A stretch of 64,000 nucleotides of DNA from contig JALCSW010000002.1 in NCBI GenBank assembly GCA_022653695.1, positions 436,320 to 500,319 of the forward strand. Direction: 5' to 3'. The notes beneath the pieces are model-generated. The model was not told where the DNA came from and did not search any database. It saw only the letters and a program-made list of their open reading frames with translations. The translations under genes and the position numbers were made by a program. Origin of the DNA: Bacilli bacterium (GTDB lineage Bacteria > Bacillota_I > Bacilli_A > RFN20 > CAG-826). Below are positions 4,481-50,428 of this stretch, piece after piece (position 1 is the first letter of the stretch; each line of letters begins with the position of its first letter).

Positions 4481-4496
4481 GGCGGTTGCCCTCCTT

Positions 4497-5669: not shown

Positions 5670-7353
5670 CGTGGCCTTTGCCTTTGTTAAGCGCCTTCTC
5701 TAAGGCCGTGAGGGCCACCTTCGTCTCGGCGGCGCTTTGCCCGAGAAGCGAGGCGATTTCCTGAACCGCCCGCATGTTCTTTTCGACGACCTCGGCCGTG
5801 ACGCGGCTCGTCTCCTGGGCGGCCGCCTCCTCTTTTTTGCGCTCCTCTTCAAGCCGCGTCACGTCGCGGAAGACCGCGATGACGATGTGGAAGTGGGGGT
5901 CGAAGGAGACCGTCGCCTCGACGTAGGCCCCGTATTGGCCAAGGTAGACTTTCCTGTTCCTGGTCGCCTCCCCGCCTAAGGCGAGGGAAAAAAGCCCACT
6001 GTCGAGATACGTGTCGATCGAGGTGCCGACAAGCCCTTTGGAATCGCCGGTCTTGACCAGGTGGGCGAACGAGGCGTTCGCGAGTTGGATCCTCAACTTT
6101 TCGTCGGTCACGACGATCGCGTTGTCGCTGCCTTCGACGATGTTGTTCGAAAAACTCCTGGCCTTGTCCATGAGATAGGGCAGGCACATCTCAAGCGAGG
6201 CTTTGCCCTTGATGACGGCGATGGCTTTGTCGCGGCAGGTCGCATAGCCGCAGCTGGAGCAATTGAGCTCGTCCTTTTTTTCGGTTTTGCCGATTTGGGC
6301 CAAGACCTTCCTTATCTCCTTTTCGCTCGGCTCAAGCGAAGTGACGCTGAAGGCCGGAAGGCGCTTGCTGAGCTCCGCGGGGGCATAGGAGCGGACCGGG
6401 AAATCCTCGCGCCCGGCCGAACGGCGGATCTCGAGGTTGCTCTCAACTGGGCGATGGGGGGAGGAAAGGGCTGGCCCGTTGATGCAACTGCCCCCGCATG
6501 AGGACATCTCCAGGAAGGCGTGATGGATTTTGCCCGAAAGGATGTCCTTAAGCGCGGCGATGCAATTTTCCATCCCGGAGACGGACAGATACGCGAAATC
6601 GGGGTTGTCCCGCTTCATCGTGAGGAGGATCCCGTCGTCGATCGGGAAGAGCCGGGCCCGGCTCTTCTCTTCCTTTTCCGAGTCTTTTTTGGCGGGCCCC
6701 ACGACGATCCCCTTCTTTTCCAAAAGATTTCTCAGCTCGATGAAAGTCAGCACGCAGTCGACGTAATCGGGATACATCTCGATTTCGCCCTTCTTGCTGA
6801 TGCATGGTCCTAGGAAAACGACCTTGGCGCCGGGATGGCGCCGCTTGATGTCCTGCCCGTGGGCCAGCATCGGCGAAAGGACCGGGGCCAGGTATTTGGC
6901 GGCGTCCGGATAATGCTTCTCCACGAGCAGATTCAGCGAATGGCAGCAGGTTGAGATGACGATGTCGTGCTTTCCGTCGTCGCAGAGGTCGTCGTATTGC
7001 TTTTTGACGATCGTGGCCCCGATGGCCGTCTCTTCGGCGTCGCGGAAGCCGAGTTTCCGTAGAGCCTCCCTGACCGAGGCGAAATCGCAGCCCGGGAAGG
7101 CCGCGAGGAAGGAAGGGGCCACCGAGGCGATGGCGTGCCCCGTGGCGATGAGATCCAAAGCTTTCGAGGTGTCGTCGCGGATGACTTTGCAGGATTGGGG
7201 GCAGGCGAGATAGCACGCCCCGCACATGACGCATTCCCCGGCGATGATCGAGGCTTGGCCGTTGCGGAAGGAAATGCTTTTGGTCGGGCAGACGCGGATG
7301 CACTTGTAGCAGCTGCGGCAGTCGTTCTCCCGGCTCGTGAGGGCCGTGCTCAT
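5662..7353 (-). CDS. hfsB: Sensory (group C, HydS-type) [FeFe]-hydrogenase-like protein with C-terminal PAS domain and coiled-coil tail (HfsB-like)
   Basis: N-terminal 2x 4Fe-4S motifs (CRSCYKCIRVCP, CVMCGACYLACP). H-cluster-like motifs are STCCHS, GPCISKKGE and EMSSCGGSCINGP. These are followed by a CSSCGYATC motif, a PAS-like region (NAIVVTDEKLRIQLANASFAHLV...) and a charged helical tail. Confidence 0.8.
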   Translation of the reverse strand: MSTALTSRENDCRSCYKCIRVCPTKSISFRNGQASIIAGECVMCGACYLACPQSCKVIRDDTSKALDLIATGHAIASVAPSFLAAFPGCDFASVREALRKLGFRDAEETAIGATIVKKQYDDLCDDGKHDIVISTCCHSLNLLVEKHYPDAAKYLAPVLSPMLAHGQDIKRRHPGAKVVFLGPCISKKGEIEMYPDYVDCVLTFIELRNLLEKKGIVVGPAKKDSEKEEKSRARLFPIDDGILLTMKRDNPDFAYLSVSGMENCIAALKDILSGKIHHAFLEMSSCGGSCINGPALSSPHRPVESNLEIRRSAGREDFPVRSYAPAELSKRLPAFSVTSLEPSEKEIRKVLAQIGKTEKKDELNCSSCGYATCRDKAIAVIKGKASLEMCLPYLMDKARSFSNNIVEGSDNAIVVTDEKLRIQLANASFAHLVKTGDSKGLVGTSIDTYLDSGLFSLALGGEATRNRKVYLGQYGAYVEATVSFDPHFHIVIAVFRDVTRLEEERKKEEAAAQETSRVTAEVVEKNMRAVQEIASLLGQSAAETKVALTALEKALNKGKGHDE

Positions 7354-7354
7354 C

Positions 7355-7609
7355 TTAGGCCTCCACGAGGGGGAGGACCTCCGAGGCGAAAACGGAAGGC
7401 AGGTTATCCTTCGTGACGCCGGTGATGATTTTGTCGTTGACCTGGATGGTGACGCCGTCGAAGGCGCATTTGCCTAAGCAAAACGCGGCCTTGAGTTCGA
7501 CCTTCTTCTCCAGATGGCGGTCCGCGACCTCTTTGCGGAACCCTTCGATGACGTCGAAGGATCCCTTGAGGTGACACGAACTGCCGACGCAGATGCTGAC
7601 ATTGACCAT
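7355..7609 (-). CDS. hfsA: Thioredoxin-like [2Fe-2S] ferredoxin (NuoE/HfsA-like)
   Basis: 84 aa with CVGSSCHLKG ... CLGKC cysteine spacing. The ATG at 7607-7609 lies 3 nt downstream of the adhE stop codon. Confidence 0.7.
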   Translation of the reverse strand: MVNVSICVGSSCHLKGSFDVIEGFRKEVADRHLEKKVELKAAFCLGKCAFDGVTIQVNDKIITGVTKDNLPSVFASEVLPLVEA

Positions 7610-7612
7610 AGG

Positions 7613-10243
7613 TTAATTCCCCTTATAGGCTTTTTTGAGGATCCCCTCCATGTCGACGACGAGCGGGACCCGCGGGTTGGCCGGGGTGCACTGGTCCTCA
7701 TAGGCGAGGTAGGAGATCTTTTCGAGGTTATTATCCCATAGTTTCTCGTCGGGGACGAGACTTTGGAAATTCATGTCGATGCCGACTTCCTTGCCGAGGG
7801 CCATGACGGCGTCGGCGAGGACCCCGGCCGCTTCCGTTTTGCTCTTGGCCCCCAAACCGAGAACGTTGCAGATTTCGAGGTATTTTTCGTCGCATTGGTA
7901 TTCCTCGTATTTCGGCCAAACGCTGAGTTTGGTCGGGGCCGTTCCGTTGTAGCGGATGACGTGGGGAAGGAGGATGGCGCAGGTTTGCCCGTGGATGAAA
8001 TGGTATTCGGCGCCGAGCTTATGGGCCAAGCTGTGGCAGAGGCCGAGGAAGGCGTTGGCGAAAGCCATGCCGGCGATCGTCGCCGCGTTATGCATCTTCT
8101 CCCGGGCCTTGAGGTCATGCTTGCCGTCTTTGACGGCGCGCGGCAGATAGGCGAAGACGAGTTTGATCGCCTCGAGCGCGAGGCCGTCGGTGTAGTCGCT
8201 CGCCATGACGGAGGTGTAGGCCTCGATGGCGTGGGTGAGGACGTCCATGCCGGTATAGGCGGTCGACTTGGCGGGCAAATTAGTCGTGAATTCCGGATCG
8301 ACTATGGCGATCGAAGGGGTGAGCGAATAGTCGGTCAGCGGGTATTTTTTGCCATGGGCCTTGTCGCTGATGACGGCGAAAGGCGAGACCTCGCTGCCGG
8401 TCCCGGACGTCGTCGGGATGCAGATGAGCTTGCTCTTGCGGCCAAGTTCCGGGTATTTGAAAGCGCGTTTGCGGATGTCCATGAACTTCTCTTTGAGGTC
8501 GTCGAAATTGACTTCGGGGTGCTCGTAGAAGATCCACATCGCCTTCGCGGCGTCCATCGAGGAGCCGCCGCCGAGGGCGATGATGGTGTCGGGCTTGAAC
8601 GCGTCCATGAGCTCGACGCCGCGCCGAACGGTCGTGATGTCGGGATCCGGTTCGACCTCCGCGAAGAGCTGATAAGTCACGGGGTTGCGACGGAGGTTCA
8701 GCTCATCGATGATTTTGTTGAGAAACCCCAACTCCACCATCGAATGGTCGGTGACGATGAAAACCTTGCCGACCTCCTTGCACGAACGGAGGTATTGGAT
8801 GCTGTTGCGTTCGAAATAGATCTTCTGCGGAACCTTGAACCACTGCATGGTGTTTCTCCTTTTGCCGACTTTCTTGATGTTGAGCAGGTTGACGGCGCTC
8901 ACGTTGCCGCCGACGGAGTTGCGGCCATAGGAGCCGCAGCCCAACGTGAGCGAAGGCAGGAACGAATTGTACACGTTTCCGATTCCGCCGAAAGTGGACG
9001 GGGAATTCCAAATAACGCGAAGGGCTTTGACCTTGTCCCCGTAGGCGTCGGCCATCGCCTGCTCCTTGCAATGGATCGCGGCGCTATGGCCCAAACCGCC
9101 GAACTCCAGCATCCGCTCAGCCATGGCGAAGCCCTCTTCCGGCCCCTTGACCTTGTAGAAGCCCAGCACCGGGGACAGTTTTTCGCGGGAAAGCGGCTCC
9201 TCGGGCCCGACGTCCTTGAGCTCCACCGCGATGATCGCGGTCCTCTCGGGAACGGCGAAACCGCTTTTCTCGGCGATCCAGGCGGGCGACATCCCGGCCA
9301 CGTCGGGGTTGAGCCGCGCCGATTCGACGCCTTTTTCCCCACGGGAGTAACCGAACATGAATTTCTCGAGTTTGGCCTTTTCCTCCTTCGAGGCGAAATA
9401 GACGTGGAAACGGGCGAACTTCTCTTTCATGGGGACGTATATCGCCTCGTCGACGAAGACGGCCGACTCGCTGGCGCAGATCATGCCGTTGTCGAAATTC
9501 TTCGAAAGGACGACGTCGTTGACGGTTTGGTCCTGATCGCACGAGGCGTTGATGTAGCACGGGACGTTGCCGGCGCCGACGCCCAACGCCGGTTTGCCGC
9601 AACTATAGGCGGCCTTGACCATGGAGTTGCCTCCCGTGGCGAGGATGGTGGCGACTCCGGGGTGCTGCATGAGCGCGGTCGTGGCGTCCATCGAAGGGTG
9701 CTCGATCCATTGGATGCAGTTCTCGGGCGCCCCGGCCGCGACGGCGGCATCGCGCATGACGATGGCGGCGGCCTTCGAGCATTCCTGGGCTTTCGGATGG
9801 AAGGCGAAGATGATGGGGTTCCTCGTCTTCAATGAGATAAGCGATTTGAAAATGACGGTCGAAGTCGGGTTCGTGACCGGGGTGATGCCGGCGATGACGC
9901 CGACGGGTTCGGCGATTTCGGTGATGCCGGTGACCGGGTTCTCGGAGATGATGCCCACGGTCTTGAGGTGGCGCATGTTGTTCACGACGTATTCGCAGGC
10001 GAAAAGGTTCTTCGTCGCTTTGTCCTCAAAGACGCCGCGATGGGTCTCCTCGATGGCCTTGCGGGCCAAGAAACCGTGCTTGTCGAGCCCGGCTACGGAC
10101 ATTTTGGCGACGATGTAATCGATCTGCTCCTGATTGAAGGACGCGAATCGGTCAAGGGCCGTCAGCCCTTTCTTGACCAACTCATCCACTTCCGCTTTCG
10201 CGGCCGCGGCCCCGTCGACGGCCGCTTCGTTTTTTTCGCTCAT
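7613..10243 (-). CDS. adhE: Bifunctional acetaldehyde-CoA/alcohol dehydrogenase
   Basis: 876 aa from the ATG at 10241-10243, preceded by AAGGAGAG. It has an N-terminal aldehyde dehydrogenase part and a C-terminal iron-type ADH part (GGGSSMDAAK, histidine-rich metal site region). The track ORF begins 13 codons further upstream without an RBS. Confidence 0.95.
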   Translation of the reverse strand: MSEKNEAAVDGAAAAKAEVDELVKKGLTALDRFASFNQEQIDYIVAKMSVAGLDKHGFLARKAIEETHRGVFEDKATKNLFACEYVVNNMRHLKTVGIISENPVTGITEIAEPVGVIAGITPVTNPTSTVIFKSLISLKTRNPIIFAFHPKAQECSKAAAIVMRDAAVAAGAPENCIQWIEHPSMDATTALMQHPGVATILATGGNSMVKAAYSCGKPALGVGAGNVPCYINASCDQDQTVNDVVLSKNFDNGMICASESAVFVDEAIYVPMKEKFARFHVYFASKEEKAKLEKFMFGYSRGEKGVESARLNPDVAGMSPAWIAEKSGFAVPERTAIIAVELKDVGPEEPLSREKLSPVLGFYKVKGPEEGFAMAERMLEFGGLGHSAAIHCKEQAMADAYGDKVKALRVIWNSPSTFGGIGNVYNSFLPSLTLGCGSYGRNSVGGNVSAVNLLNIKKVGKRRNTMQWFKVPQKIYFERNSIQYLRSCKEVGKVFIVTDHSMVELGFLNKIIDELNLRRNPVTYQLFAEVEPDPDITTVRRGVELMDAFKPDTIIALGGGSSMDAAKAMWIFYEHPEVNFDDLKEKFMDIRKRAFKYPELGRKSKLICIPTTSGTGSEVSPFAVISDKAHGKKYPLTDYSLTPSIAIVDPEFTTNLPAKSTAYTGMDVLTHAIEAYTSVMASDYTDGLALEAIKLVFAYLPRAVKDGKHDLKAREKMHNAATIAGMAFANAFLGLCHSLAHKLGAEYHFIHGQTCAILLPHVIRYNGTAPTKLSVWPKYEEYQCDEKYLEICNVLGLGAKSKTEAAGVLADAVMALGKEVGIDMNFQSLVPDEKLWDNNLEKISYLAYEDQCTPANPRVPLVVDMEGILKKAYKGN

Positions 10244-10258
10244 ATTTCTCTCCTTGTT

Positions 10259-10427
10259 TATCGGTATTCTTTTACCGGACACATTCTATGAACCCCGATC
10301 GATAAAATCAATAGGTTTCAGTACAGTTTTACCGATATGAAATATAATGCCGATGAATCCTGACTATATATCAGTACAATTACCGATAAGTTTATTGAAA
10401 GCGTTTCCATGAAAACCGGTATATCGG
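10259..10427. promoter_or_regulatory. Cluster of TACCGATA-type repeats in the adhE / MFS divergent control region
   Basis: Direct repeats are TCAGTACAGTTTTACCGATA (10318-10337) and TCAGTACAATTACCGATA (10371-10388). An inverted copy TATCGGTA sits at 10259-10266, and a related ACCGGTATATCGGC at 10414-10427. Confidence 0.5.
10283..10311 (-). promoter_or_regulatory. Candidate sigma-70 promoter of adhE
   Basis: On the minus strand: TTGATT (10306-10311), 17-nt spacer, TAGAAT (10283-10288), about 40 nt upstream of the adhE ATG. Confidence 0.4.
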
Positions 10428-10547
10428 CAGAAAATCCGCCCAGGCGTTCCGGCTCCCGAAAAAAAGCTCGTAACCTCAGTCGCCTCCGATTTCGCCTTTC
10501 AAAGGTTTCCGGCGGGTCGTAGACTGATTGAAAAGAGGAATAACCTT

Positions 10548-12023
10548 ATGGGCACTTCCGAAAAGAAAGAACGGCGGCGTTTGGCCGCGGAAGCCAGAAG
10601 AAGGAAACGCGAGGAAGATAAGGAAGGGCACCGCCTTCGGAGCGAGGCCCGCGAAATGGGGCGGCTGGAGAAAGAGAAGGCCCGGCCCAAAGGAAAAGGA
10701 TACTTATGGTACCTTATCTTTTTCCTTTGCCTCGTTTACATCGTCGATGAGGTGGCCACCGGGCTCCATAACGGCATCGTGAACGAAGCCGTTTCCTCCT
10801 TTTTCATCACGAGTTCCGACCCCCGTCTCGCAAGCGAGGAGACCTCGAACGGCTTAGGCACTTTCAGCACCATGGAAATGGTCGCCAACATTTTGTTGGT
10901 CATCGGTTTCTTCTACAAGGCCTTGGCCGACCGCTTCGGCCGCAAGCCGTTCCTCATTGCCAACACGATCGGCATGGTCGGAGGCTTGCTTCTATGCCTA
11001 TGGGGACCCAACCTCGCGGTTTATATCCTCGGTTTTTGCGTCATCCGTTTCTTCGTGACGCCCGACGAGCAGATCGTCTATATCTTCGAGTCGGCCCCGA
11101 AGGAAAAGCGCGGCTCCATCTATAGCGGCGTCAAAGGCGTCGCCGAGCTCGGGCTTCTTCTGATCCCGCTTGGCCGTTACCTCTTCATCGACTCGCTCGG
11201 GAACGGCTGGAGGATGGTCTTCCTGATCCCGGCCTGCATAGGCGCCGCCGTCAGTTTCTTCCTTTGCTTCTTCGCCCGCGAAACCGATCCTTTCATCGAA
11301 TCGCGCCTGAGGTTCCTCAAGCTCTCGCCCGCGGAACGCCTGGCGATCGCCAAAGAGAAAAAGGACCAGTCGAGAAAGCAGGGCGGCTTCTTCGCCGCGG
11401 TCAGGTACGGCTGGGGCGGCAAGCAACTCCGCTGGATTTTCATCGTCACGATCCTTTTCACTTTGTCGCGGTGGATCACGAGCGAGTACTCGCCTATCCT
11501 CGACGCCGCTGGATTCACCGGCGCCCAAACGACGAACGCCCTCTTCATGTATCCGATCACGGCGGCCCTTATCGTTTTCGCCTATGGCTTCCTCAGCGAC
11601 AAAGTCGGGCGCAAAATCACGTCCATAACCCTTTTGGCGATCACCATCGTCTCGCTCAGCCTGTTCGTTCTGGGGGCTTACCTCCGGTGGAACGAATTCG
11701 CCCTCGGCTTGCTCATAGGCCTCTTCTTGGGGGCATACTGGAGCAACGGCGACACGCTCATCCTCATGACCGGCGAAAGCGCCCCGACGAACCTGCGCGC
11801 CTCCATCATGTCGGCTCAAACGATGTTCTATGGCATCGGCATGGTCGTGAGCCAAGGCTTGGGATCCATCGCCCTCAAGGTTTTCAAGATGCCGGCGTCC
11901 TATATCGGCCTCTTCTCGATTTGCCTCGCCATCCCTTGCTTCGTCCTTTCCCTCGTCTTCCTTATGGGCAAAGTCAAGGAAACGAAAGGCGCCGACGTCG
12001 ACAAGGCGGTCACGCAGGAATAG
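10548..12023 (+). CDS. MFS transporter with a ~50-aa highly charged N-terminal extension
   Basis: AAGAGGA RBS upstream. About 12 hydrophobic segments and an MFS loop motif (LADRFGRKP). The N-terminus reads MGTSEKKERRRLAAEARRRKREEDKEGHRLRSEAREMGRLEKEKARPKGKG. Confidence 0.85.
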   Translation: MGTSEKKERRRLAAEARRRKREEDKEGHRLRSEAREMGRLEKEKARPKGKGYLWYLIFFLCLVYIVDEVATGLHNGIVNEAVSSFFITSSDPRLASEETSNGLGTFSTMEMVANILLVIGFFYKALADRFGRKPFLIANTIGMVGGLLLCLWGPNLAVYILGFCVIRFFVTPDEQIVYIFESAPKEKRGSIYSGVKGVAELGLLLIPLGRYLFIDSLGNGWRMVFLIPACIGAAVSFFLCFFARETDPFIESRLRFLKLSPAERLAIAKEKKDQSRKQGGFFAAVRYGWGGKQLRWIFIVTILFTLSRWITSEYSPILDAAGFTGAQTTNALFMYPITAALIVFAYGFLSDKVGRKITSITLLAITIVSLSLFVLGAYLRWNEFALGLLIGLFLGAYWSNGDTLILMTGESAPTNLRASIMSAQTMFYGIGMVVSQGLGSIALKVFKMPASYIGLFSICLAIPCFVLSLVFLMGKVKETKGADVDKAVTQE

Positions 12024-12091
12024 ACGTCTTCTAGAAAACCGATGGCTTTTCCTCCGCCGTTCCCTTTGCGTTCCGTTACAATGGATAGGCA

Positions 12092-12460
12092 ATGAAAAAG
12101 AACGGACCCGACAGACTTCGCATCGATTCCTACAAGAGACACCTTGCGATCAACTTGGCTTGCTTCCTCGTCGACGCCTCCCTCTTCGCCGCCGCTTTCG
12201 CCATCGCCTACGCGGTCGGCTCTTCAGGATGGATGCTGGCTAACATCGCCTTCGCCCTCGTCTCCGTCCTTGGGCTCGCCATCACGGTCGTCGGCATCCT
12301 CAATCCGAACGCGCTGATTTCCACCTCGTCGGTGAAAGGGCCGAAAAATTACGCCGACTTCGATCTCGCCGCCCGTCGCTACTACGTCTCGTCCATGTAT
12401 TCGTTTTGGGGGTTCTTGGGTTTCATCGGCTTGGTTTTCGTGATCGTCTTAGCCGTGTGA
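12092..12460 (+). CDS. Small hypothetical membrane protein
   Basis: 122 aa with three or four hydrophobic helices. I recognised no motif and the RBS is weak. Confidence 0.45.
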   Translation: MKKNGPDRLRIDSYKRHLAINLACFLVDASLFAAAFAIAYAVGSSGWMLANIAFALVSVLGLAITVVGILNPNALISTSSVKGPKNYADFDLAARRYYVSSMYSFWGFLGFIGLVFVIVLAV

Positions 12461-12461
12461 A

Positions 12462-12498
12462 GAAAGCCCCATCGAAACAAGCGTCCAATGGGGCTTCA
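12462..12498. terminator. Weak hairpin between convergent genes
   Basis: AAGCCCCAT (12464-12472) pairs with ATGGGGCTT (12488-12496). The loop is 15 nt and the U-tract is poor. Confidence 0.35.
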
Positions 12499-12508
12499 TG
12501 GGCCGTTT

Positions 12509-13750
12509 TCAGAGAACGATGTCCTCTTTTTTGCGCTTCCCCTGCCGGCCTTTCTTGAATTCGATCTCGCCTTTGCCGATGGCGCCGACCGGGCACACGA
12601 GGGAGCATAGGAGGCAACCGACGCACTTATCGCGATCGCACTTCGGGCGGCGCCTTTCCTTATCCCATTCCATGGCTTGGTGGGCCCCGTCGTAACAAGA
12701 GACGACGCAGCGTCCGCAACCGACGCAACGGTCCTCGTCGATCGCCGGATAGACTTTGTAATCGCGATCGAGTCTCTCAGCCGGGATGATACTCTTATTG
12801 GCTAAGCCGACGAGATCCTCCAAGCGGTCGACGCCTTGCTCCTCCATATAATGCTGAAGGCCATTTTTCATGTCTTCGACGATCCGGTAGCCGTACTCCA
12901 TGACGGAGGTGGTCACCTGCAATGTCTTGGCGCCGAGGAGGATGAATTCCGCCGCGTCGACCCAGGTCTCGATGCCGCCGATCCCCGAAATCTCGAGATT
13001 GGGCATGGCTTCGCGCATCTGCTGGATGAAGCGGAGGGCGATCGGCTTGACCGCCTTGCCGCTGTAACCGCTGATGGACGATTTGCCATTAACGATCGGC
13101 ATGCCGATCTTTTTGTCGAGGTCCACGTTGCAGATGGACTTGACGGTGTTGATGGCGGAAATGCCATCGGCCCCGCCTTCGAGGCAGGCCTTGGCCACCG
13201 GGACCATATCGGTGATGTTCGGGGTCATCTTGGCCATGAACGGAAGTTTGCTGCCGCGGCGGACGGCCGCGCAGTACTTCCTGCACAGTTCCGGATCGCT
13301 GCCGACGTCGCTCCCCATCGCGTGAGAGGTCATCTGGGGGCAGGAGAAATTGAGTTCGAGCATATCGGCTCCGGCTTCGGTGGCAAGGCGGGCGAGGTCC
13401 TCCCATTCCTTTTCGTTGGCCCCCATGATCGAGGCGATAAGGACGTTGCTTGGGTAGTCGCGCTTCAGCGCCCCGATATCGCGAAGGTTGTCCGCAAGGG
13501 GGTGCTCGGCGATCTGCTCCATGTTCTTGAAGCCGACGAACGGGGTGTCCTCCTTGGCGAGTTTGTCGAAACGCGGCGAGACCTCGTCAGCGATGAAAAA
13601 GCCGATGGTCTTGAACACCACGCCGCCCCACCCGGTCTTATAGGCTTTCGCGCACATGTCATAGCAATTGCCGACCGGGGAAGCGCTCAAGCAAAACGGA
13701 TTGGGGAACCTGACCCCCATGAACGTGATCGAAAGATCTTTGTTGGCCAT
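12509..13750 (-). CDS. preA: NAD-dependent dihydropyrimidine dehydrogenase subunit PreA-like (DHOD-like TIM barrel plus C-terminal 2x 4Fe-4S)
   Basis: ATG at 13748-13750 ([25 protein letters not shown]...), 1 nt after the preT stop. The C-terminus carries [11 protein letters not shown] and [12 protein letters not shown]. The track ORF is extended 39 codons into preT. Confidence 0.8.
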
Positions 13751-14963: not shown

Positions 14964-15213
14964 ATAGTTGACCTCATTGCTAAGTTTACGCTATGTAAGC
15001 GCTTCCGTGAAGATATGAAGAAACAAATACCGGTTTATCGCATCTTTTGAAAGGGCGGCGTATAAAATGGAATCGTCAGCCAAACGATCGGACCGGACCG
15101 TTTTCCGTTAAGAAAGATGGCTAGACGGCCGCGGCTCGCCCCACTTCGCTCTTTTTTCAAAGGGCAAAGAAGCGCAAAATGTTAAGTCCGTTATTTCCTG
15201 GCGAGGTGGCATC

Positions 15214-16671
15214 ATGAACGACGAAGCGACGTTGGCGAAACCGGAGGGCCGGATTTCAAAATTCTTCCACCTCCGCGAACGAGGGGGCAAATTCGGCGCC
15301 GAGATCCTAGGCGGCGTCGTCACTTTCCTCGCGATGTCCTATATCCTTCCGGTCAACGCCAGAATCCTTTCCGACGCGGGCATGGATTCCTTGGGCGTCT
15401 TCGGAAGCACCGCTCTCGTGAGCGCCCTCGTCACGCTTATCATGGCCCTCGTGGCCAACTGCCCAATCGCCCTTAGCTCCGGGATGGGCTTGAACGCTTA
15501 TTTGGCCTATACGGTCTGCGGGCAACTTGGCTACAGTTGGCAGGAAGCCATGATCCTGCTCACCGTGACCGGCATCGTCTTCTTCGTTTTCTCCTTGACC
15601 CCCATACGGCGGAAAATCATCGATTCGTTCCCGACCGACCTGAAGGCCATCATCTCGGCCGGCCTCGGCGGATTCATCGCCTTCGTCGGTCTCAAAGGCG
15701 CCGGGATCATCGTCGCCGACAGTTCCACTTTGGTGGCTTTGGGGTCCTTGTCGGACCCGTCCGTCCTTCTCGCGGTCTTTGGCATAATCCTCGTCCTGAT
15801 CCTGATGAACGTGAAGACCAAAAAAGGGCTTATATCGTCTTTATCCGTGCCCATCGGCATGGCGACGGTCGCCATCGTGGGCATCATCATCAGGGCCTGC
15901 GGAGTCGATAACGAGGGCCTGCCGTGGGCGGACTTCTCCGCTCACTGGGGCATGAACGATTACCAAAACGTTTTCGCCTATGGCCTCCTTTCCTCGGGGC
16001 AGGCGGGACTCGTGACCGGAAACGGCTTTTGGGGCCTCGTCGGCGACGTTTTCGCCCAACCGGCCTCCTATGTCGTCATTTTCTCGCTGATGTTCGTCAA
16101 CCTGTTCGACACCACGGCCACTTTAATGGCCATCGGCAGGGAGACCAAACTGTTTGGCGAAGACGGGAAAATGAAAAGCAACCGCGTCATCATGGCCGAT
16201 GCCACGGGCGCCCTCATCTGCGCCCCCCTTGGCACCGCCACCGTCACCTCGTTCGTCGAATCGACGATCGGCGTGAAGATCGGCGCCAAAACGGGGCTGG
16301 CCTCGGTCGTGACCGCTTCCCTTTTCCTTCTTTCGGCTTTCGCCTACCCGCTTTTCCAGGCCTTCACCTACTCTTGCGTCACCTGCCCCGCCCTCGTCGT
16401 CGTGGGCGCCATGATTTTCTCAAGCAATCTCAAAACCATCAAATGGTCCGACACCGAAATCGGCTTCACGGCCTTCGTCACGATTCTCATGATCGTCCTT
16501 ACCTACTCCCTAACCAACGGCATCGGCTTCGGCCTGTTCGTCTACTGCGCCATCATGCTCGCCAAGGGCAAAGGCAAAAACGTGTCGTGGATCCTCTATC
16601 TTATCGCTGGAATCTATGTCCTTGATTTTGCCCTCAGCGCCGTCTTAGCCAAGTTGGGGGCAACCGTATAA
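15214..16671 (+). CDS. NCS2/AzgA-family purine (adenine/guanine/hypoxanthine) permease
   Basis: The N-terminus FHLRERGGKFGAEILGGVVTFLAMSYILPVNARIL is typical of the AzgA/PbuG-like family. Multiple TM segments. Confidence 0.85.
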   Translation: MNDEATLAKPEGRISKFFHLRERGGKFGAEILGGVVTFLAMSYILPVNARILSDAGMDSLGVFGSTALVSALVTLIMALVANCPIALSSGMGLNAYLAYTVCGQLGYSWQEAMILLTVTGIVFFVFSLTPIRRKIIDSFPTDLKAIISAGLGGFIAFVGLKGAGIIVADSSTLVALGSLSDPSVLLAVFGIILVLILMNVKTKKGLISSLSVPIGMATVAIVGIIIRACGVDNEGLPWADFSAHWGMNDYQNVFAYGLLSSGQAGLVTGNGFWGLVGDVFAQPASYVVIFSLMFVNLFDTTATLMAIGRETKLFGEDGKMKSNRVIMADATGALICAPLGTATVTSFVESTIGVKIGAKTGLASVVTASLFLLSAFAYPLFQAFTYSCVTCPALVVVGAMIFSSNLKTIKWSDTEIGFTAFVTILMIVLTYSLTNGIGFGLFVYCAIMLAKGKGKNVSWILYLIAGIYVLDFALSAVLAKLGATV

Positions 16672-16929: not shown

Positions 16930-16957
16930 TTGACAATAACCAATCGTTTTATAAAAT
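16930..16957 (+). promoter_or_regulatory. Candidate sigma-70 promoter of the surface-protein operon
   Basis: TTGACA (16930-16935), 16-nt spacer, TAAAAT (16952-16957), about 80 nt upstream of the first ATG. Confidence 0.5.
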
Positions 16958-17039
16958 TAACGTATCAGAAGGGCAAAACCGGCGACGCAAAGCTACAGGG
17001 TCTCGATGAGATAGCCAGTTGTTAGGAACGGCCGAGAAC

Positions 17040-18818
17040 ATGTTTAAGCAACTAGCGGAAAAACTTCACGGACAAGGCAAGACGCCCATTATCGGATCAT
17101 GCCTTGTTTTGTCGATCCTCACGATGAGCATCGCCACCTATGCCTGGTTCACCCAAAGCCTGCCAGGGGCGAATAAGATCGTCATGACGGCCGACGACAG
17201 CTCGGTGATCGTCGATGGATACGCCTATGTCCCCGGATACGCGACGGACGAAAACGGCGACCCCATCGAGGCGGCCCATAGCAACCATGGCGAGAATCCT
17301 TTGCTCGATGCCTCAAAGCAGACGGGGGCGGGATCGGCCACTTACACGGTCACCTTCTCAAGCGCGGCCCTCTCGACGGATTTCTCCTATGCCGAACTCT
17401 ACGGGGACGAGCTTTTCCAGTATGAGCGGTCCTTCCCCCACCTCTACCTCGAATTCCGTTACACCAAGCCGACGTTCGACGGCTTCATTCAGGCGAGGGT
17501 CAAGAACATCGCGTACGCCCCCGACGTCAACGGGTACACGAACCTTAACGGCTCTTTGAGGTTCCAGTACCGCGCCGTCACGGAGCAAAACACCCCCGCC
17601 AAGAAGCGCATCAACGGTTTCACGGCCGCTTATGAGGATAGCGCCTACACCTCAAGCGATTGGACCACGATCACCGAAGAAACGGGGGATTTTGACCTCT
17701 ATAACGAGACGACCGACATGGCGGGGTACAGTTACGGAGCTTCCTACACGGTTCAGAATCAGCTCTACGTTCCCGGCTTCCCCTATATGTACGACGCGAC
17801 GAACTACTATTACTCGAAATCCACTTTCCTGGAGTTCCGCGTCGATCCCCTGAGTTGGATACAATACTTTCGGAATCACGACGGCGCGGACTCCCGGCAA
17901 TACGATTTCGGGGTCTCTTTCGACGTCGGGCTCAATTTCTCGAACACCCCCTATTACGACTCCACCTACTCGAATTCCCCACGTTTGGCCCTAAGCGCCT
18001 CCGCGCTCGCCATGAAACCCTCGAGCGCCGACCGCTCGATCGGCGTCTCGGCCTTCAATTTCTGGAATACGCCCACTTACGCCATCACGTCCACCGAGAA
18101 CGGCCTTCTCCTCTCCGCCCAAGTCGGCGCCGATAACGTTTTGGCGCTAAACTCGGGGCCAACGAGCGGGACCGCCACCCTTACCATAAGGGCCACCAAC
18201 GGCAGCCAATCGGCCGAGGCGACCCTAATCGTGCGCGTATCCGGCCCGAGCCTGAGCCTTTCGGCAAACGCCGTGACGGTGAAAATGGGCAGTTATGCCA
18301 CCGTGACGGCGGAAGCCTGCAACTTCGACGGCGAAGTCACGATCGGAGCCGCTTCAAGCGAGCCCTCCGTCGCATCCGTCTCCATCAACGGAACCTTGAT
18401 CGCCATCGCTCCTGTCGCCATCGGCGAAAGCGTGCTTATGGTGACCGCGACCGATGGTTCCAACGAAAAAACGGCCACCTGCGCCATTTCCGTCGCAAAG
18501 GAAGGCAAGACCCTTGTTTCCATCGCCGTGACCACCCCGCCTGACAAAACGGTCTATCTCAAAGGGGAGGTCTTGGACACGACGGGCCTCGTCGTCACCG
18601 CGACCTGGGACGAAGGCACCCACGCGGTCGTTTCCGGCTCTTGCGGCTTCACGCCGACCGATCTCGATGTCGCCGGGACCCAGCTCATCACCGTTTCCTA
18701 TGGCGGATGCACGACCGCGTTCGCCGTGACGGTAAACGACATCGCCCCTTGCTGGATTTTCACGGGAAAGACCGGAGGCGAGGCCGCGTTTGGCCCTCGC
18801 CTTGATCTTTTGGGGTAA
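17040..18818 (+). CDS. Secreted/surface protein: SipW-class N-terminus, TasA/camelysin-like domain, then Big_2 and Big_3 Ig-like domains
   Basis: ATG at 17040 (track alternative is TTG at 17019). Hydrophobic segment followed by ATYAWFTQS. Big_2-like stretch LSLSANAVTVKMGSYATVTAEA...VASVSINGTLIAIAPVAIGESVLMVTATDG. Big_3-like stretch LVSIAVTTPPDKTVYLKGEVLDTTGLVVTATWDEG...GTQLITVSYGG. Confidence 0.7.
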   Translation: MFKQLAEKLHGQGKTPIIGSCLVLSILTMSIATYAWFTQSLPGANKIVMTADDSSVIVDGYAYVPGYATDENGDPIEAAHSNHGENPLLDASKQTGAGSATYTVTFSSAALSTDFSYAELYGDELFQYERSFPHLYLEFRYTKPTFDGFIQARVKNIAYAPDVNGYTNLNGSLRFQYRAVTEQNTPAKKRINGFTAAYEDSAYTSSDWTTITEETGDFDLYNETTDMAGYSYGASYTVQNQLYVPGFPYMYDATNYYYSKSTFLEFRVDPLSWIQYFRNHDGADSRQYDFGVSFDVGLNFSNTPYYDSTYSNSPRLALSASALAMKPSSADRSIGVSAFNFWNTPTYAITSTENGLLLSAQVGADNVLALNSGPTSGTATLTIRATNGSQSAEATLIVRVSGPSLSLSANAVTVKMGSYATVTAEACNFDGEVTIGAASSEPSVASVSINGTLIAIAPVAIGESVLMVTATDGSNEKTATCAISVAKEGKTLVSIAVTTPPDKTVYLKGEVLDTTGLVVTATWDEGTHAVVSGSCGFTPTDLDVAGTQLITVSYGGCTTAFAVTVNDIAPCWIFTGKTGGEAAFGPRLDLLG

Positions 18819-18821
18819 CCG

Positions 18822-21608
18822 ATGGGAAAGCCGCTGAAAGCGAAAACCAAACGGATCCTAGGCGTCCTTCTCGCGTGCTCGGGCGCGAGCGCCGTCGCCC
18901 TTTCCTCCGTCGCCTCTTTGGCGGCGTATCTCGACGTGGCCACGTTCAGGGCTCCGGTGACCTACGAAACCGAGAACGTCGGCGCGACTTATTTTTCCGG
19001 AGGCGAGGGAACGCCCTCAAATCCTTACCTAATCGGCACGGCCTCGCAGTTGCGCAATTTGCAGAAACTCAATTCCCTAGGCATGTTCGGCCCTTCGACC
19101 GAATTCGATTTAAGCGCGGATATCCTTTGGAGCGGCGAGGCTTTACGGCCGATCGGGAGCGACGACGTTCCCTTTGAGGGGACTTTCGACGGCCGGGGGC
19201 ACACGATCGCGGGGCTTCTCGTCGACGGCTTCCAGACCTGGGACGTCGGCATGTTCGGTTACGTGGCCATCACCGGGACGATCAAGAACCTCATCCTCGA
19301 CGCCCCGACCGTTTGCGTCGGGGCTAACGCCGACGGGGCTAGCGCCGACAGCACGAATCCCCTGCACTCAATCCTCAAAAGGGCCGCCCAAAATCTGCCG
19401 ATACCCAGCCTCACCCAAAGCGGGGAAGGCTACGTTTCCTGGACCGATCGCGACGGCGGCTCCGCCATCTCGGGCCTCGCCTCCTCCCTCGTCGACGCTA
19501 ACGGGGATTCGCACGCGATCGTCTACGAAAGCAGCGATGAAAGCCTGCTGAGCTACGAAAACGGGGCGTGGGTGACCCACGCCACCGCCAGCGCGAACCC
19601 CGACGCGGACCTCTTCCCGGCGATGCTTACCGGCCGCGTCTTCGCCGAAATTGGCGGCAAGATCTCCGCCTATACCGTCGAACGCTACGAAGTCAACGTC
19701 CTCGGAAACGGGACGATCAGCGACGGCCACGTTTCCCTAACCGACGAGGTCACCGGGGTTTCCGTCGATGAGGAAGACGGCGTCTTCAAAACCATTTGGC
19801 CGCTCGACCCAAGCGGGGGCACGAGCGATTATCATGGCGTTTACGTCGGCTTTTTCTGCGGGGATCTCGACGGATCCGCCACGTGCTGCGGCCTCGTTGG
19901 GGGCAACGATTACGGCTCCTCCGCCAACGCCAAAATCATCGTTTCGGGCCGCCCGGCCGCCTCCGCTTCCTCGCTTGTGGGACGTTGCCGCGACGATGAT
20001 GTTCGCGATGGGGCGGGCGGAAGAAGATACACCCACGCGTTCGATTTCGGCAAAAACGTCACCAGCTATAGTTTCGAGGCCCCTGCCAAACCCTATGAAG
20101 GAACGTATTACTATCGCTATAACGATTCCTCTTTGGACTCTTTCGCAAGCGGAAACATCGCCCGCCAAATCGCTGATTCGAACGCTCTGAGCAAAGAATA
20201 CCTGAAGTTGCCCGACGGGACGACCGACGGCGAGGCCTACAAATACATGCGCGTTTACCCTACGGCCAGCAAGAACGAGAACGTATCCTACGCTTACGCA
20301 GACGGAGACGGCAACGTCCACGAAATCACGGGCCGGATCGCGATGCATTTCAGCGAGCCGCTATCCGGGGCGGCCGATACCCTTTGCCGCGACTGGCGTT
20401 ACGACATGGGCGCGATAGGGGACCGCAACGGCGACGGCCTCGTCGACGAAGGCGACATCAGGCAGAGCGACGACTACGACCACGCGATCGATCTTAGCGA
20501 CGACGATCCCGACCTCCGGGGGGAACTCGACCCCTCCCTTTACGCCCTCGACTTAAACGTTCCGGCCGACTATTGCCTCAATAACGGTTTCTGGGTGTCC
20601 ACCGAGCGCGGCGGCGAGGACGTCGTCGACGCCATCGCCGACAAATCATCCTTCAGCCTAACCTTCACGATCGATTACGTCGCGACCACCACCAACCCCA
20701 TCCATAACCAGAACAGTTGGCAAATCATGTATAACGCCAGCAACCAAAGCCTCCACAGGTTCCAACCGGTGCGCAACGACCTTAACGGCGATCCTCAAGG
20801 CTTCTTCTACAAAGACGGGGCTCTGCAGAACCTTCTTTGGTACGACCTTCATCACCCTTATCAATATAGCGACGCCGATCGGTGCTATCGCGAGATCGAC
20901 TCGGAATACGCCCCGGTCCCCATCGTTGACGACGGGACGAGGCAGACGGCGAGGCTCTCGATCGACATCGACCGGAACGACGCCTCGTTTTGGGCGGCCT
21001 ATTACGGCGATTACCCTTCTTCCTCCGCTTGGAGCCCTTGCTTTGCGATCGGGCCGGGGAAAGACGATTCGGCAACCCATTGGAAAGCCGCCTCATTGAC
21101 CGGGGCCAGCCAAATCACCGATGGATCAAGCGGCAATTGGAGCGACTATTACGACGTTTGGCGCGGCCCTTTCGTCTCGGAGGATCCGCAATATCGGAAC
21201 CCTCAGGTCTCCCAGCGGGGCCTTCAAGGCGACGCGGCCCAGTTCTTCAACAGCTTTTTCGCCCTTCAAGGCGACTTATCGCTCGACGTCCTCTCCTTCG
21301 GCTTCCTCGTCGCCGGGGCGAACGGCAACGTCTCCTCGACCATGCGGAACGTCGACTACCTTTATCGGGCCTCCGACGTCGAATTCGATGGGTCCAGCGA
21401 CACCTTCTCCTCCTGGAACCGAGCCTCCGACACCCGGGTTTCCTTCGACGTCACGACGGCCTTAGCCTCCGGGAACGCCACGTATTATTACTATCGCGAG
21501 GCCACCGAAGACGGCTACGGGGCCTCCGTCCACGCCGACTACACGAACTCCGCTTACGAGCCCGTGAACGCGAGGGGTTACGCCAAGGCGAACTTTCTTA
21601 GGAGATAG
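18822..21608 (+). CDS. Large (928 aa) surface protein with GLUG/beta-helix-type N-terminal module and one dockerin/EF-hand-like Ca-binding motif
   Basis: Starts 3 nt after the upstream stop. The signature GTPSNPYLIGTASQLRNL...VPFEGTFDGRGHTIAGLLV is typical of GLUG-type beta-helix adhesins. DRNGDGLVDEGDI is present. The N-terminus has both a possible lipobox (VLLAC) and a long hydrophobic stretch ending SLAAYLDV. Confidence 0.65.
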   Translation: MGKPLKAKTKRILGVLLACSGASAVALSSVASLAAYLDVATFRAPVTYETENVGATYFSGGEGTPSNPYLIGTASQLRNLQKLNSLGMFGPSTEFDLSADILWSGEALRPIGSDDVPFEGTFDGRGHTIAGLLVDGFQTWDVGMFGYVAITGTIKNLILDAPTVCVGANADGASADSTNPLHSILKRAAQNLPIPSLTQSGEGYVSWTDRDGGSAISGLASSLVDANGDSHAIVYESSDESLLSYENGAWVTHATASANPDADLFPAMLTGRVFAEIGGKISAYTVERYEVNVLGNGTISDGHVSLTDEVTGVSVDEEDGVFKTIWPLDPSGGTSDYHGVYVGFFCGDLDGSATCCGLVGGNDYGSSANAKIIVSGRPAASASSLVGRCRDDDVRDGAGGRRYTHAFDFGKNVTSYSFEAPAKPYEGTYYYRYNDSSLDSFASGNIARQIADSNALSKEYLKLPDGTTDGEAYKYMRVYPTASKNENVSYAYADGDGNVHEITGRIAMHFSEPLSGAADTLCRDWRYDMGAIGDRNGDGLVDEGDIRQSDDYDHAIDLSDDDPDLRGELDPSLYALDLNVPADYCLNNGFWVSTERGGEDVVDAIADKSSFSLTFTIDYVATTTNPIHNQNSWQIMYNASNQSLHRFQPVRNDLNGDPQGFFYKDGALQNLLWYDLHHPYQYSDADRCYREIDSEYAPVPIVDDGTRQTARLSIDIDRNDASFWAAYYGDYPSSSAWSPCFAIGPGKDDSATHWKAASLTGASQITDGSSGNWSDYYDVWRGPFVSEDPQYRNPQVSQRGLQGDAAQFFNSFFALQGDLSLDVLSFGFLVAGANGNVSSTMRNVDYLYRASDVEFDGSSDTFSSWNRASDTRVSFDVTTALASGNATYYYYREATEDGYGASVHADYTNSAYEPVNARGYAKANFLRR

Positions 21609-21610
21609 CC

Positions 21611-22504
21611 ATGCGCCGGTTCAAATTCACGAAAAACGTCGCTTTCGAGATGGTGATGGCCCTCCTTACCGTTGCCTCTTTGGCCGCGAGCACGTTCGCC
21701 TGGTTCAACATCAAATCCGGCACCACCATCGCTTTTTGGAGCATGAAGATCTCCGATCCGTCCAACATCAAAGTCCAAATAAAATACTGCGTCCATAACA
21801 AAACGACAACCTACGACGCCGACGGGAAGCCCGTCGTGACCTTCTCGGGTTACAACGACCCCCGACCCCCCACGACGACCGACCCCAGTCAGCGGAAGAC
21901 CTGCTCCGATTATTCCTCGGACTTCATTTCGGTCCCGGGCAACGTCTACCAGGAAAACGGGCCTTTGGACTTAAGGAACCTGGTCCCGGGGCTCGTCCAT
22001 ACTTTCGTTTTCGAAATATACGCCAAGAAGACCGCCGACGTCCGCTTCTATTGCCGAAACTGGTATTCGCCCGGCAACGGGCTTTGCTATCTGGCCGGCC
22101 AGCACGCCTACCCCGTCCCCGTTTGCCTCGCCAGCGCGATCGACATGTACCCCAACAACTACCCCAAGGGCACCAACGCCGAGAACACGGCCCACGCCGC
22201 CCAATACATGACCACCTATATCTGCGAATGGAACGGCCGCGATTACTTCACGTTCTACGACAACACCCAACAGCTGGATCCGAACGGATACCTTATGTGG
22301 TCGGGCACCATCGAAGGCGACCACACCAACCTCGTCTTCTTCACCCTCGGCTTTTCCAACAAAAGCGATTGCTACTACAAGTACAGCTCCACGGACGGGA
22401 CCTACGACTACTATTACCGCGACGGCAGCGGCAGCAACGATTGCTACCGGGGCATGGAATTCAACATCACCGATCTCTATGTCGATTCCGTCCAGTCCTC
22501 ATGA
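21611..22504 (+). CDS. TasA/CalY (camelysin, peptidase M73)-like secreted protein with SipW-class N-terminus
   Basis: AGGAGA RBS; starts 2 nt after the upstream stop. N-terminus LLTVASLAASTFAWFNIKS. Internal LDLRNLVPGLVHTFVFEI resembles the NL-x-PG-D strand motif of TasA/camelysin. The C-terminus has TNLVFFTLGFSN. Confidence 0.6.
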   Translation: MRRFKFTKNVAFEMVMALLTVASLAASTFAWFNIKSGTTIAFWSMKISDPSNIKVQIKYCVHNKTTTYDADGKPVVTFSGYNDPRPPTTTDPSQRKTCSDYSSDFISVPGNVYQENGPLDLRNLVPGLVHTFVFEIYAKKTADVRFYCRNWYSPGNGLCYLAGQHAYPVPVCLASAIDMYPNNYPKGTNAENTAHAAQYMTTYICEWNGRDYFTFYDNTQQLDPNGYLMWSGTIEGDHTNLVFFTLGFSNKSDCYYKYSSTDGTYDYYYRDGSGSNDCYRGMEFNITDLYVDSVQSS

Positions 22505-35784: not shown

Positions 35785-36372
35785 ATGAGCAACGCAATCG
35801 AGATCGAAGCCAAAGCCTTGGTGAGCCAAAGGGATTACGAAAAACTACTTAGGCGCTTCGCGGGCGAAAAGGCCTACGAGCAAACCAACTATTACATCGA
35901 TAACGGAGAGGGGCTTCTAAGGAAAGAGGGGTTCGCCCTCCGCATCCGGGAAAGGGAGGGGCTTTACGAAATGACCCTCAAAACCCCGTTGAGCGAAGGC
36001 CTTTTGGAAAAGAACTGCGCTTGGAGCAAGGATCGGTTCGACGCGTTCATGCAAAAAGGCGTTTTCCCCGAGGGGGATATCAAACGCTTCCTCACGATGC
36101 TTGACATCGACGTGAGCAAACTGAAGGTTCTGACATCGCTCACCACGAAACGCGTCGACGTCGAATACGAAGGCGGCAAACTCTCGCTCGACGAAAACCA
36201 CTACTCGGGCCACGTCGATTACGAAATCGAGCTTGAGCATAACTCCATGGTAGACGCGACCGAGAAACTGCATTCCCTCTTCATCGAGGAGAAAATCCCG
36301 TTCGTCCTGAACCTCAAAACAAAGGTGGCCCGCGCCCTAAACGCCGTCGGCCAGCAAAAACCTTTGAACTAA
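35785..36372 (+). CDS. CYTH-domain (triphosphate tunnel metalloenzyme, YjbK-like) protein
   Basis: The N-terminal IEIEAKALV (ExExK motif) and overall length are typical of CYTH. Confidence 0.8.
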   Translation: MSNAIEIEAKALVSQRDYEKLLRRFAGEKAYEQTNYYIDNGEGLLRKEGFALRIREREGLYEMTLKTPLSEGLLEKNCAWSKDRFDAFMQKGVFPEGDIKRFLTMLDIDVSKLKVLTSLTTKRVDVEYEGGKLSLDENHYSGHVDYEIELEHNSMVDATEKLHSLFIEEKIPFVLNLKTKVARALNAVGQQKPLN

Positions 36373-50412: not shown

Positions 50413-50428
50413 GGGTGAACTCCTTATT

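Follow-up and report, generated by a model that had tools for sequence, protein, structure and literature searches.

Three unannotated proteins with TasA-type signal sequences encoded by one operon in an uncultured Bacilli bacterium, and their relation to CoCoPALM and c-di-GMP-I riboswitches

The window analysed here, a stretch of 64,000 nt from contig JALCSW010000002.1 of an uncultured Bacilli bacterium, contained a three-gene operon (g1, g2, and g3) whose products all began with a predicted signal sequence of the TasA type. The locus resembled an operon of substrates of the signal peptidase SipW but matched neither TasA/camelysin, by hidden Markov model (HMM) or by fold, nor the Pfam family GLUG, and it is best filed as a set of unannotated families with TasA-type signals that share the regulation, and often the genomic location, of the uncharacterised system CoCoPALM. 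In our view the three products are probably surface or fibre proteins of a cyclic diguanosine monophosphate (c-di-GMP) regulon, processed in trans by a SipW-type peptidase and acting jointly at the cell surface.

The locus consisted of a promoter, a leader, and three co-directional genes (Table 1) separated by 3 nt (g1/g2) and 2 nt (g2/g3), an arrangement behind a near-consensus promoter that had been described in an earlier note on this DNA and was confirmed by the list of open reading frames (ORFs) and the promoter match. Promoter-like sites were not more numerous in the region than expected by chance (2 found versus 1.7 expected after shuffling); both hexamers of the promoter were kept in the orthologous leaders of loci L013 and L001, as seen in the leader alignment. 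The start of g1 was set at the ATG at nt 17040, with AGGAA 13 nt upstream, because of the N-termini of the orthologues (MF.W.KKK..KGK...) and the leader alignment, so that the protein has 592 aa (599 aa if counted from the TTG at nt 17019). The public g1 gene calls P0007 and P0008 began at an internal Met (MSIATYAWF...), so that the signal lacked its basic and hydrophobic portion. The motifs quoted in the earlier note were all present, namely SIATYAWFTQS in g1, and AASTFAWFNIKS and GPLDLRNLVPG (residues 117–127) in g3.

Each of the three proteins opened with a K/R-rich segment followed by about 20 hydrophobic residues, after which T/S-aromatic-A-W-F was found in g1 and g3, and S/T-L-A-A-Y in g2. 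Cleavage was predicted after codons 17142–17144 in g1 (...SIATYA|WF), 18921–18923 in g2 (...VASLA|AYLD), and 21698–21700 in g3 (...AASTFA|WF). In g2, A34 and A35 were invariant across 30 homologues, in which the site followed the pattern S/T/A-x-A|A-Y/F. The family logo, made from 249 distinct sequence windows, had T (82%), S (11%), or another small residue at P3; Y, F, L, I, V, or M at P2; A (96%) or S at P1; W at P1'; and F (84%) or Y (12%) at P2'; the regular expression used for the search partly fixed P1, P1', and P2' and left P3 and P2 free. This logo satisfied the -3/-1 rule when the cut was placed between A and W, and [AS]W[FYLIMV] followed the hydrophobic segment in 279 of 293 family sequences. 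The motif was rare in the background, with about 1 occurrence in 150–300 ORFs: when [GSAT][TS]xA[WA][FY] was searched in the ORF N-termini of the window, only the trio and one spurious 89-aa ORF were retrieved, and a related expression applied to control ORFs of at least 200 aa matched 4 of 298, which were two genes of the trio and, twice, the same unrelated DUF362 protein.

Alignment with hhalign placed the family motif in register with GGT-W-A|A-F of TasA, the mature start of which, AFNDIK, was confirmed against PDB entry 8aur. A small residue (T) at P3, a bulky one at P2, A at P1, and an aromatic one at P2' constitute a TasA-like site; in TasA itself the Trp at P2 and the Phe at P2' impede LepB, the ordinary signal peptidase I, and the site is cleaved by the archaeal-like SipW (PMC10269814). 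Moreover, TIGR04088 was the only recurrent NCBIfam family among the g3 relatives (11 of 86, weak, best E 0.0057), with 0 of 17 among the g1 relatives and 0 of 30 among the g2 relatives. The SipW-type character that had been proposed for the N-termini of the two outer proteins was thus supported by the logo, the TasA register, and the TIGR04088 matches, and this one type of N-terminus was shared by all three products, not only the outer two. A class III (type IV prepilin) signal was rejected, as no G/F-x-x-x-E preceded the hydrophobic segment and the conserved motif came after it.

The similarity to TasA did not extend beyond the signal. For g3, six relatives were retrieved by a word-indexed search, and a profile search of 1.84 billion representatives gave 161 clusters of the family, nearly all with proteins of 250–330 aa; judged by its sequence, g3 is the founder of an unannotated family. 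The AlphaFold2 (AF2) model of g3 calculated from 86 sequences (predicted local distance difference test score, pLDDT, 91.5; predicted template-modelling score, pTM, 0.83) consisted of a helix (residues 2–36) joined by a short linker to a beta-sandwich that included one long helix. A Foldseek search of the PDB with this confident model returned nothing at E ≤ 1e-3, with TasA (5of1 and 8aur) outside the top 50 and AbpA (7ueg) in rank 43 (TM score 0.23–0.35), and no significant neighbour was found among the viral structures of BFVD. AbpA had been the top match (E 9e-3) only with an AF2 model made from 7 sequences (pLDDT 58.6) and was discounted because the match was not reproduced with the 86-sequence model. 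When the family profile was aligned to TasA by hhalign, only the signal region aligned (probability 2.4%). PF12389 did not match g1 or g3 even at E ≤ 1, although it was the only recurrent Pfam family among the g3 relatives (4 of 86, weak, best E 0.0099); searches of PDB sequences with single sequences and with profiles A3, A4, and A6 yielded a single match, to a motif of g2 (see below). The mature domains of the trio therefore show no detectable membership of the TasA/camelysin family, and this assignment, which the earlier note had made for the outer proteins, was not sustained by HMM, profile, or fold comparison. The resemblance of LDLRNLVPG in g3 to the NL-x-PGD strand of TasA, also put forward there, is not evidence of homology, because neither fold nor profile similarity was observed outside the signal. 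Of the earlier interpretation as a whole, the conservation of the trio (see below) and the SipW-type signals stood, whereas the TasA/camelysin membership of the outer proteins fell.

In g1, the signal or anchor was followed by an AWF domain of about 300 aa ("g1-type"), two Ig-like repeats, and one Big_3 domain (PF07523), which was the sole match of the three proteins in Pfam and NCBIfam scans (E 8.3e-9, 36 bits against a cutoff of 21.2). The orthologues of g1 had more C-terminal Ig-like and other modules and were 963–1485 aa in length. Homology between g1 and g3 was restricted to the first ~60 residues, from the signal through the AWF motif to the first hairpin (hhalign 95.5%, E 1.5e-8); past these, similarity was absent from the profile comparison.

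The middle protein, g2, had been read earlier as a GLUG/beta-helix protein, which held for a short N-terminal motif only. This motif (Table 1), with the pattern YFsGG.GT..nPYlI....QLRNLQKL...PIGSDD.PFeGTFDG.GHTI, matched PDB entry 3n6z, a "putative IgA1 protease" (E 1.1e-5 for the single sequence, 8.5e-6 for the profile), and its signature NPYxI...LRNL...FxGxFDGxGHxI was strongly conserved across 30 g2 homologues, whereas the PF07581 GLUG HMM matched neither g2 nor any of these 30. There were 37 relatives in total, of which only remote ones, covering 11–17% of the query, carried PF07581 GLUG or PF05342 (M26-N). Beyond the motif, about 800 residues gave no match in Pfam, NCBIfam, or PDB, and the remainder of g2 appears by its sequence to be a large domain without a recognised fold family; weak matches were seen to a pectate-lyase-like domain in one homologue and to a phage depolymerase domain in a second. 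A role as zinc protease was rejected, as a search of g2 for the HExxH motif found none.

Trio loci were sought, inter alia, with the g2 alignment. In species-representative genomes, full-length g2 relatives were confined to about a dozen metagenome-assembled genomes (MAGs) of uncultured Bacilli/Bacillota. Syntenic trios were found at L001, L006, L007/L014, L013, L015, L008/L016, L018, L019, and L024. The gene order was g1-g2-g3 in most lineages and g2-g1-g3 in L009/L010/L017/L021/L023, a Ca. Alloenteromonas-like lineage. The trio was conserved as a unit across uncultured Bacilli, in agreement with the co-occurrence in related genomes that the earlier note had proposed to check. Two paralogous trios were present in MAG UW_MP_BACIL4_1, L013 with 89% and L014 with 43% identity; L014 belongs to JALCDB01. 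The contig of L007 (trio at nt 7433–13,509) had the same IMG submission prefix as the window contig and a tetranucleotide correlation of 0.98 with the window, and the genome of the window probably holds L007 as a second, paralogous, riboswitch-led trio, with g2 43% identical. About 4 kb downstream of the L007 trio, on the opposite strand, lay a T2SSE-ATPase operon (com/type IV pilus-like).

No gene for a signal peptidase, sortase, TapA, McrB-like protein, or DUF2357 protein was found in the window by Pfam labels and scans, and HMM and BLAST searches detected no signal peptidase in the window or in the flanks of its lineage; the absence of SipW, TapA, and sortase genes, by which the earlier note had set the locus apart from tapA-sipW-tasA, was thus upheld. 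The regular expression GSMxP also retrieved no signal peptidase, being too strict for the peptidases of relatives described below, which read T-D-S-M. In four other lineages (L009/L010/L017/L022, L021/L023, L015, and L018), the trio lay beside a conserved gene cluster with a signal peptidase within 10 kb (Table 1). The peptidase at L017:6743–7528 scored 61.4 bits against TIGR02228 (cutoff 51.85), the cluster peptidases matched NF046067 SipW with E from 1e-13 to 1e-17, and S52 (T-D-S-M), H96 (T-H-R), and the GDN box were invariant across 51 sequences.

A metagenome scan seeded with the McrB-like protein of this cluster gave 381 relatives, from which 80 loci were kept for linkage counts. The peptidase was present in all 52 loci with at least 4 kb downstream, and at least one AWF-motif ORF in all 34 with at least 5 kb upstream; 12 McrB-seeded loci contained a g2 homologue, among them P0026, 40% identical to g2 of the window. 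The commonest AWF protein beside the cluster belonged to a fourth family, designated x-type (~290 aa, GTxAWF, for example L008:13533–14402). Proteins of this type and those with a TYAFF-type N-terminus (for example L017 2078–3055) were commoner beside the cluster than the trio and may represent the main subunits; ten proteins of the x-type and AFF-type gave no match when scanned against Pfam.

This cluster fits CoCoPALM, named in 2024, the core of which comprises an NxD McrB-like GTPase with transmembrane/coiled-coil segments, a McrC/DUF2357 homologue, and a signal-peptidase-family protein, and for which the authors predicted a role in pilus assembly, with the analysis deferred to a future paper (PMC11090510). 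A search of the accessible literature found no follow-up on CoCoPALM. None of the three core genes was located in the window, whereas all three stood beside the trio in the related lineages, so that the trio of the window is at most an unlinked partner of CoCoPALM. In L008/L016 (nt 15,062–16,586), a second c-di-GMP-I riboswitch was situated past the trio and was directly followed by an ISL3 transposase gene; the same second riboswitch leads the CoCoPALM operon in L095, L084, and L113. Because ISL3 sits exactly where relatives have the CoCoPALM operon, a rearrangement or insertion sequence is suggested to have separated the machinery from the trio or removed it.

The leader between the promoter and the start codon of g1 contained a degenerate c-di-GMP-I (GEMM-I) aptamer. 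Its best match within clan CL00126 was RF03168 (36.4 bits, E 1e-6 to 3e-6), below the gathering score of 65.9, and RF01051 did not match the window leader at its gathering score. The core GCAAA / GACGCAAAGC / AGCCAGUUG and the P1b stem were kept, the latter with compensatory changes between window/L013 and L001. The GNRA hairpin P1a, which covaried at 5 of 5 pairs in 20 relatives, had been lost through a 10-nt deletion between ACCGGCG direct repeats; this deletion is regarded as real because two independent assemblies, SRR16377041 and SRR35197852, showed it as well. Orthologous leaders were bona fide members, as RF01051 matched upstream of g1 with 52–68 bits (gathering score 35) in L013 (52.4 bits), L001 (56.1 bits), L008, L018, L019, L084, and L095. 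With R1, a covariance model built from 20 riboswitch instances, 96 elements were detected in the related loci, the copy of the window having the lowest score (50.7 bits). In almost all trios, the L044/46/47 lineage excepted, an element preceded the first gene by 9–47 nt, and elements also headed most CoCoPALM operons. On account of the riboswitches at both kinds of operon, the trio and CoCoPALM are assigned to a single c-di-GMP regulon, including cases in which the two are not linked. Genes for EAL phosphodiesterases were embedded in or flanked the cluster in the L017 lineage. Minimum-free-energy folding of the leaders gave z-scores near 0. Because its aptamer has lost the P1a hairpin, expression of the window trio is probably no longer, or only weakly, responsive to c-di-GMP. 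Neither this riboswitch remnant, nor the signal of g2, nor the link to CoCoPALM had been noticed in the earlier note.

Table 1 Features of the trio locus in the window and members of the cluster linked to the trio in related lineages
Feature	Position (nt)	Strand	Remarks
Promoter, sigma-70-like	16930-16957	+	TTGACA-16 nt-TAAAAT; 11/12 consensus positions
Degenerate c-di-GMP-I (GEMM-I) aptamer	~16962-17027	+	Between promoter and start codon
g1	Opens TTG 17019, real start ATG 17040, end 18818	+	ORF list and orthologues
Big_3 (PF07523) Ig-like domain of g1	18537-18734	+	Residues 507-572 of the 599-aa ORF
g2	18822-21608	+	928 aa; ORF list
GLUG-like N-terminal motif of g2	18990-19214	+	Residues 57-131, ~75 residues
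g3	21611-22504	+	297 aa; ORF list
Cluster member, small proteins			~127 and ~310 aa
Cluster member, T-A-T-Y-A-F-F-type N-terminus			~325-370 aa; directly upstream of the McrB-like gene
Cluster member, McrB-like GTPase			517 aa; N-terminal transmembrane segment, coiled-coil, AAA_5/McrB-like domain with GTANNDD (NxD then D)
Cluster member, DUF2357 (McrC-like) protein			~700 aa
Cluster member, archaeal/SipW-type signal peptidase			261-271 aa

The following scheme is proposed. After export of g1, g2, and g3 by Sec, a SipW-type (S26B) peptidase, the gene of which would lie at another place in the genome, would cut at A|W in g1 and g3 or at A|A in g2, sites at which an aromatic P2' and a bulky P2, as in TasA, would make a poor substrate for ordinary signal peptidase I. 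The cleaved proteins would then work together at the cell surface within the c-di-GMP (sessile/adhesive) regulon, most likely as a fibre, a pilus-like structure, or a surface complex, in which the N-terminal module common to g1 and g3 may mediate assembly, while the variable Ig-like stalk of g1 and the large domain of g2 may be exposed and adhesive; the machinery of assembly or control would be the GTPase/McrC pair of CoCoPALM. A more specific version, put forward tentatively and as no better than a possible outcome, is that the trio and the x-type proteins are the subunits and tip of an undescribed filament of monoderm bacteria, cut by SipW, with its assembly driven or gated by CoCoPALM, and switched by c-di-GMP-I riboswitches, which, if true, would mean that the ATPase of a restriction system had been recruited into a new pathway of pilus assembly.

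Several observations weigh against the proposed scheme. Cleavage is a prediction only, and AF2 drew one continuous helix through the motif of g3. The window's own lineage showed no gene for a signal peptidase, a McrB-like protein, or a DUF2357 protein up to 10 kb from the trio; the only, suggestive, hint of CoCoPALM and its peptidase in this lineage was the tetranucleotide correlation (r = 0.962) between L043, a CoCoPALM contig, and L003, a trio of the window lineage, both from metagenome Ga0183099. The aptamer of the window is damaged, and its link to c-di-GMP is inferred from orthologues. Finally, TIGR04088 matched none of g1, g2, and g3 of the window at E ≤ 1, and neither fold nor sequence evidence was found for a donor-strand (fibre-forming) domain.

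Some of these observations would also be expected if the N-termini were uncleaved signal-anchors holding a membrane-tethered surface complex, with T-x-A-W-F acting as an interfacial aromatic belt or a helix-helix contact, since membrane interfaces typically carry W, F, and Y. The unbroken helix at residues 2–36 of g3 and the lack of a peptidase gene in the window and in the flanks of its lineage agree with such an arrangement, and the oligomers of BsaA of Clostridium perfringens are membrane-anchored (PMC11580942). It is nevertheless considered unlikely: positions -3 and -1 were limited to small residues permitted by peptidases (T/S/G/A/V/C, then A/S), the register equalled that of the experimentally cleaved TasA site, and a catalytically intact SipW-type peptidase was linked in 52 of 52 loci of relatives. 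The idea that g1 and g3 are divergent subunits of the TasA/camelysin fold, forming a donor-strand-exchange fibre that displays g2, draws on the TasA-like signals, the weak PF12389 matches in 4 of 86 relatives, the top but non-significant Foldseek match of the low-confidence model to AbpA (7ueg), and the high divergence of TasA-family sequences (PMC11580942). With the confident model lacking a PDB match at E ≤ 1e-3 and ranking TasA outside the top 50 and 7ueg 43rd, with hhalign aligning the signal region alone, with profile searches finding nothing relevant among PDB sequences, and with PF12389 absent from the proteins of the window, it is improbable.

Two further explanations start from single components. 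According to one, the role of g2 is that of a secreted enzyme with a beta-helix-like N-terminus (for example a protease, glycan lyase, or hydrolase) for the degradation of host or environmental polymers rather than part of an adhesive fibre, and g1 and g3 are its accessories or anchors. Its probability is judged to be small, for although the g2 motif matches the "putative IgA1 protease" 3n6z, the distant matches carry M26 N-terminal or GLUG domains, and one homologue each is weakly similar to pectate-lyase-like and phage depolymerase domains, neither a catalytic domain nor HExxH was detected in g2, ~800 residues of which have no family match, and control by a c-di-GMP riboswitch together with Ig-like stalks suits adhesion better. 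According to the other, the trio and CoCoPALM constitute an envelope-associated conflict or defence system derived from McrBC, in place of one for lifestyle or adhesion. The linked GTPase/DUF2357 pair does fall in the McrBC family of Type IV restriction systems (PMC11090510; Pfam AAA_5 and DUF2357); against this, the GTPase is membrane-anchored, the cluster also encodes exported proteins as well as a signal peptidase, c-di-GMP riboswitches stand at the head of both operons, EAL phosphodiesterase genes are embedded in the cluster, and the authors who named CoCoPALM predicted a role in pilus assembly (PMC11090510), so that a defence function is very improbable.

Among known systems, the trio shared with tapA-sipW-tasA of B. 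subtilis the signal register (T at P3, aromatic P2, A at P1, F/Y at P2'), the presence of several substrates in one operon, a linked dedicated S26B peptidase (in relatives of the trio), and, by analogy, a predicted extracellular or biofilm-type role. It differed in that the mature domains showed no detectable sequence or fold similarity to TasA, P1' was an invariant Trp in g1 and g3, TapA was missing, and the peptidase gene lay outside the operon and was absent from the window; in relatives it sat with the McrB-like GTPase and DUF2357 genes. Whereas tapA-sipW-tasA is regulated by SinR, the trio is preceded by a c-di-GMP-I riboswitch. The sipW-bsaA-bsaB-bsaC operon of C. perfringens is like the trio in combining, in association with SipW, two small secreted matrix-type proteins with a large one, BsaC (vWA, ~70 kDa), and its oligomers are held at the membrane without attachment by sortase (PMC11580942). 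Unlike g1 and g3, for which no TasA homology was detectable, BsaA and BsaB are remote homologues of TasA that use an isopeptide "exchange and lock"; a vWA domain is missing from g2; and secretion of Bsa is linked to type IV pilus genes, whereas the link of the trio is to CoCoPALM.

The loci related to the trio carried exactly the core described for CoCoPALM (GTPase, McrC/DUF2357, and signal peptidase), while in the window the cargo-like trio stood without any gene of CoCoPALM. The CoCoPALM paper (PMC11090510) describes neither the exported proteins of the AWF type nor the g1-g2-g3 trio nor control by riboswitches. Subunits with a beta-sandwich and an archaeal-type signal peptidase are features shared with AbpA of the archaeal bundling pili (7ueg) and other TasA-like donor-strand fibres (PMC9245690), though the Foldseek match of the confident g3 model to AbpA was non-significant. 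In their scores and their position before the first gene, the orthologous leaders were like other RF01051 riboswitches; the copy of the window departed from these by its score below gathering and its missing P1a hairpin, and the regulated genes belong to unannotated families. The orthologous leaders accord with control of surface structures by c-di-GMP; riboswitches of the c-di-GMP-I class control pili and adhesins of Clostridioides difficile.

If the proposed scheme is correct, CoCoPALM, so far only a name, would gain candidate substrates or cargo in at least three unannotated families with a T-x-A|W-F signal, a catalytically intact SipW-type peptidase, and a c-di-GMP input through GEMM-I riboswitches on the operons of both cargo and machinery. 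SipW-type signals would extend past the TasA fold, to beta-sandwich proteins and to a protein of ~900 residues without detectable TasA homology, and the trio points to a c-di-GMP-controlled adhesion apparatus of uncultured Bacilli of the gut and digesters, for which the damaged aptamer of the window offers a natural comparison of riboswitch function.

Otherwise, the window contained ordinary housekeeping and anaerobic-metabolism genes, as judged from Pfam labels and scans. At nt 3041–10,282 (minus strand), genes for [FeFe]-hydrogenase-like proteins (nt 3041–4480 and 5662–7353) flanked that for a SpoIIE/PP2C phosphatase (nt 4497–5669), adjoined by the gene for a bifunctional AdhE (nt 7613–10,282); this group resembles the hfs sensory-hydrogenase regulatory clusters of thermophilic Clostridia. 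An island of low GC content (0.445–0.484 versus ~0.56 for the whole window) at nt ~36,000–40,000 encoded an AlbA_2/Schlafen-like protein (nt 36,893–37,180), a HATPase_c_4 protein (nt 37,196–38,293), and a protein of 295 aa (nt 38,900–39,787, minus strand), and may be a mobile or defence islet. The region at nt 44,896–47,648, which comprised tRNA-Ser(GGA) (nt 44,896–44,986), an integrase-like fragment (rve, weak; nt 45,231–46,013, minus strand), and a DUF6290/ParE toxin-antitoxin pair (nt ~47,171–47,648), looks like the remains of an integrated element. An extracytoplasmic function (ECF) sigma factor gene (nt 52,697–53,272), followed by genes for three proteins without Pfam match (505, 172, and 406 aa), formed a group at nt 49,060–53,272 (minus strand) that is probably an anti-sigma or envelope-stress module. 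The last group, at nt 53,400–63,921, was a metal/phosphate homeostasis cluster with genes for an Fe-dependent repressor, an HMA protein, FeoA/FeoB (nt 54,590–57,153), an HMA P-type ATPase (nt 58,504–61,236, minus strand), a ZIP transporter (nt 61,083–61,892, minus strand), and PHO4 (nt 62,824–63,921).

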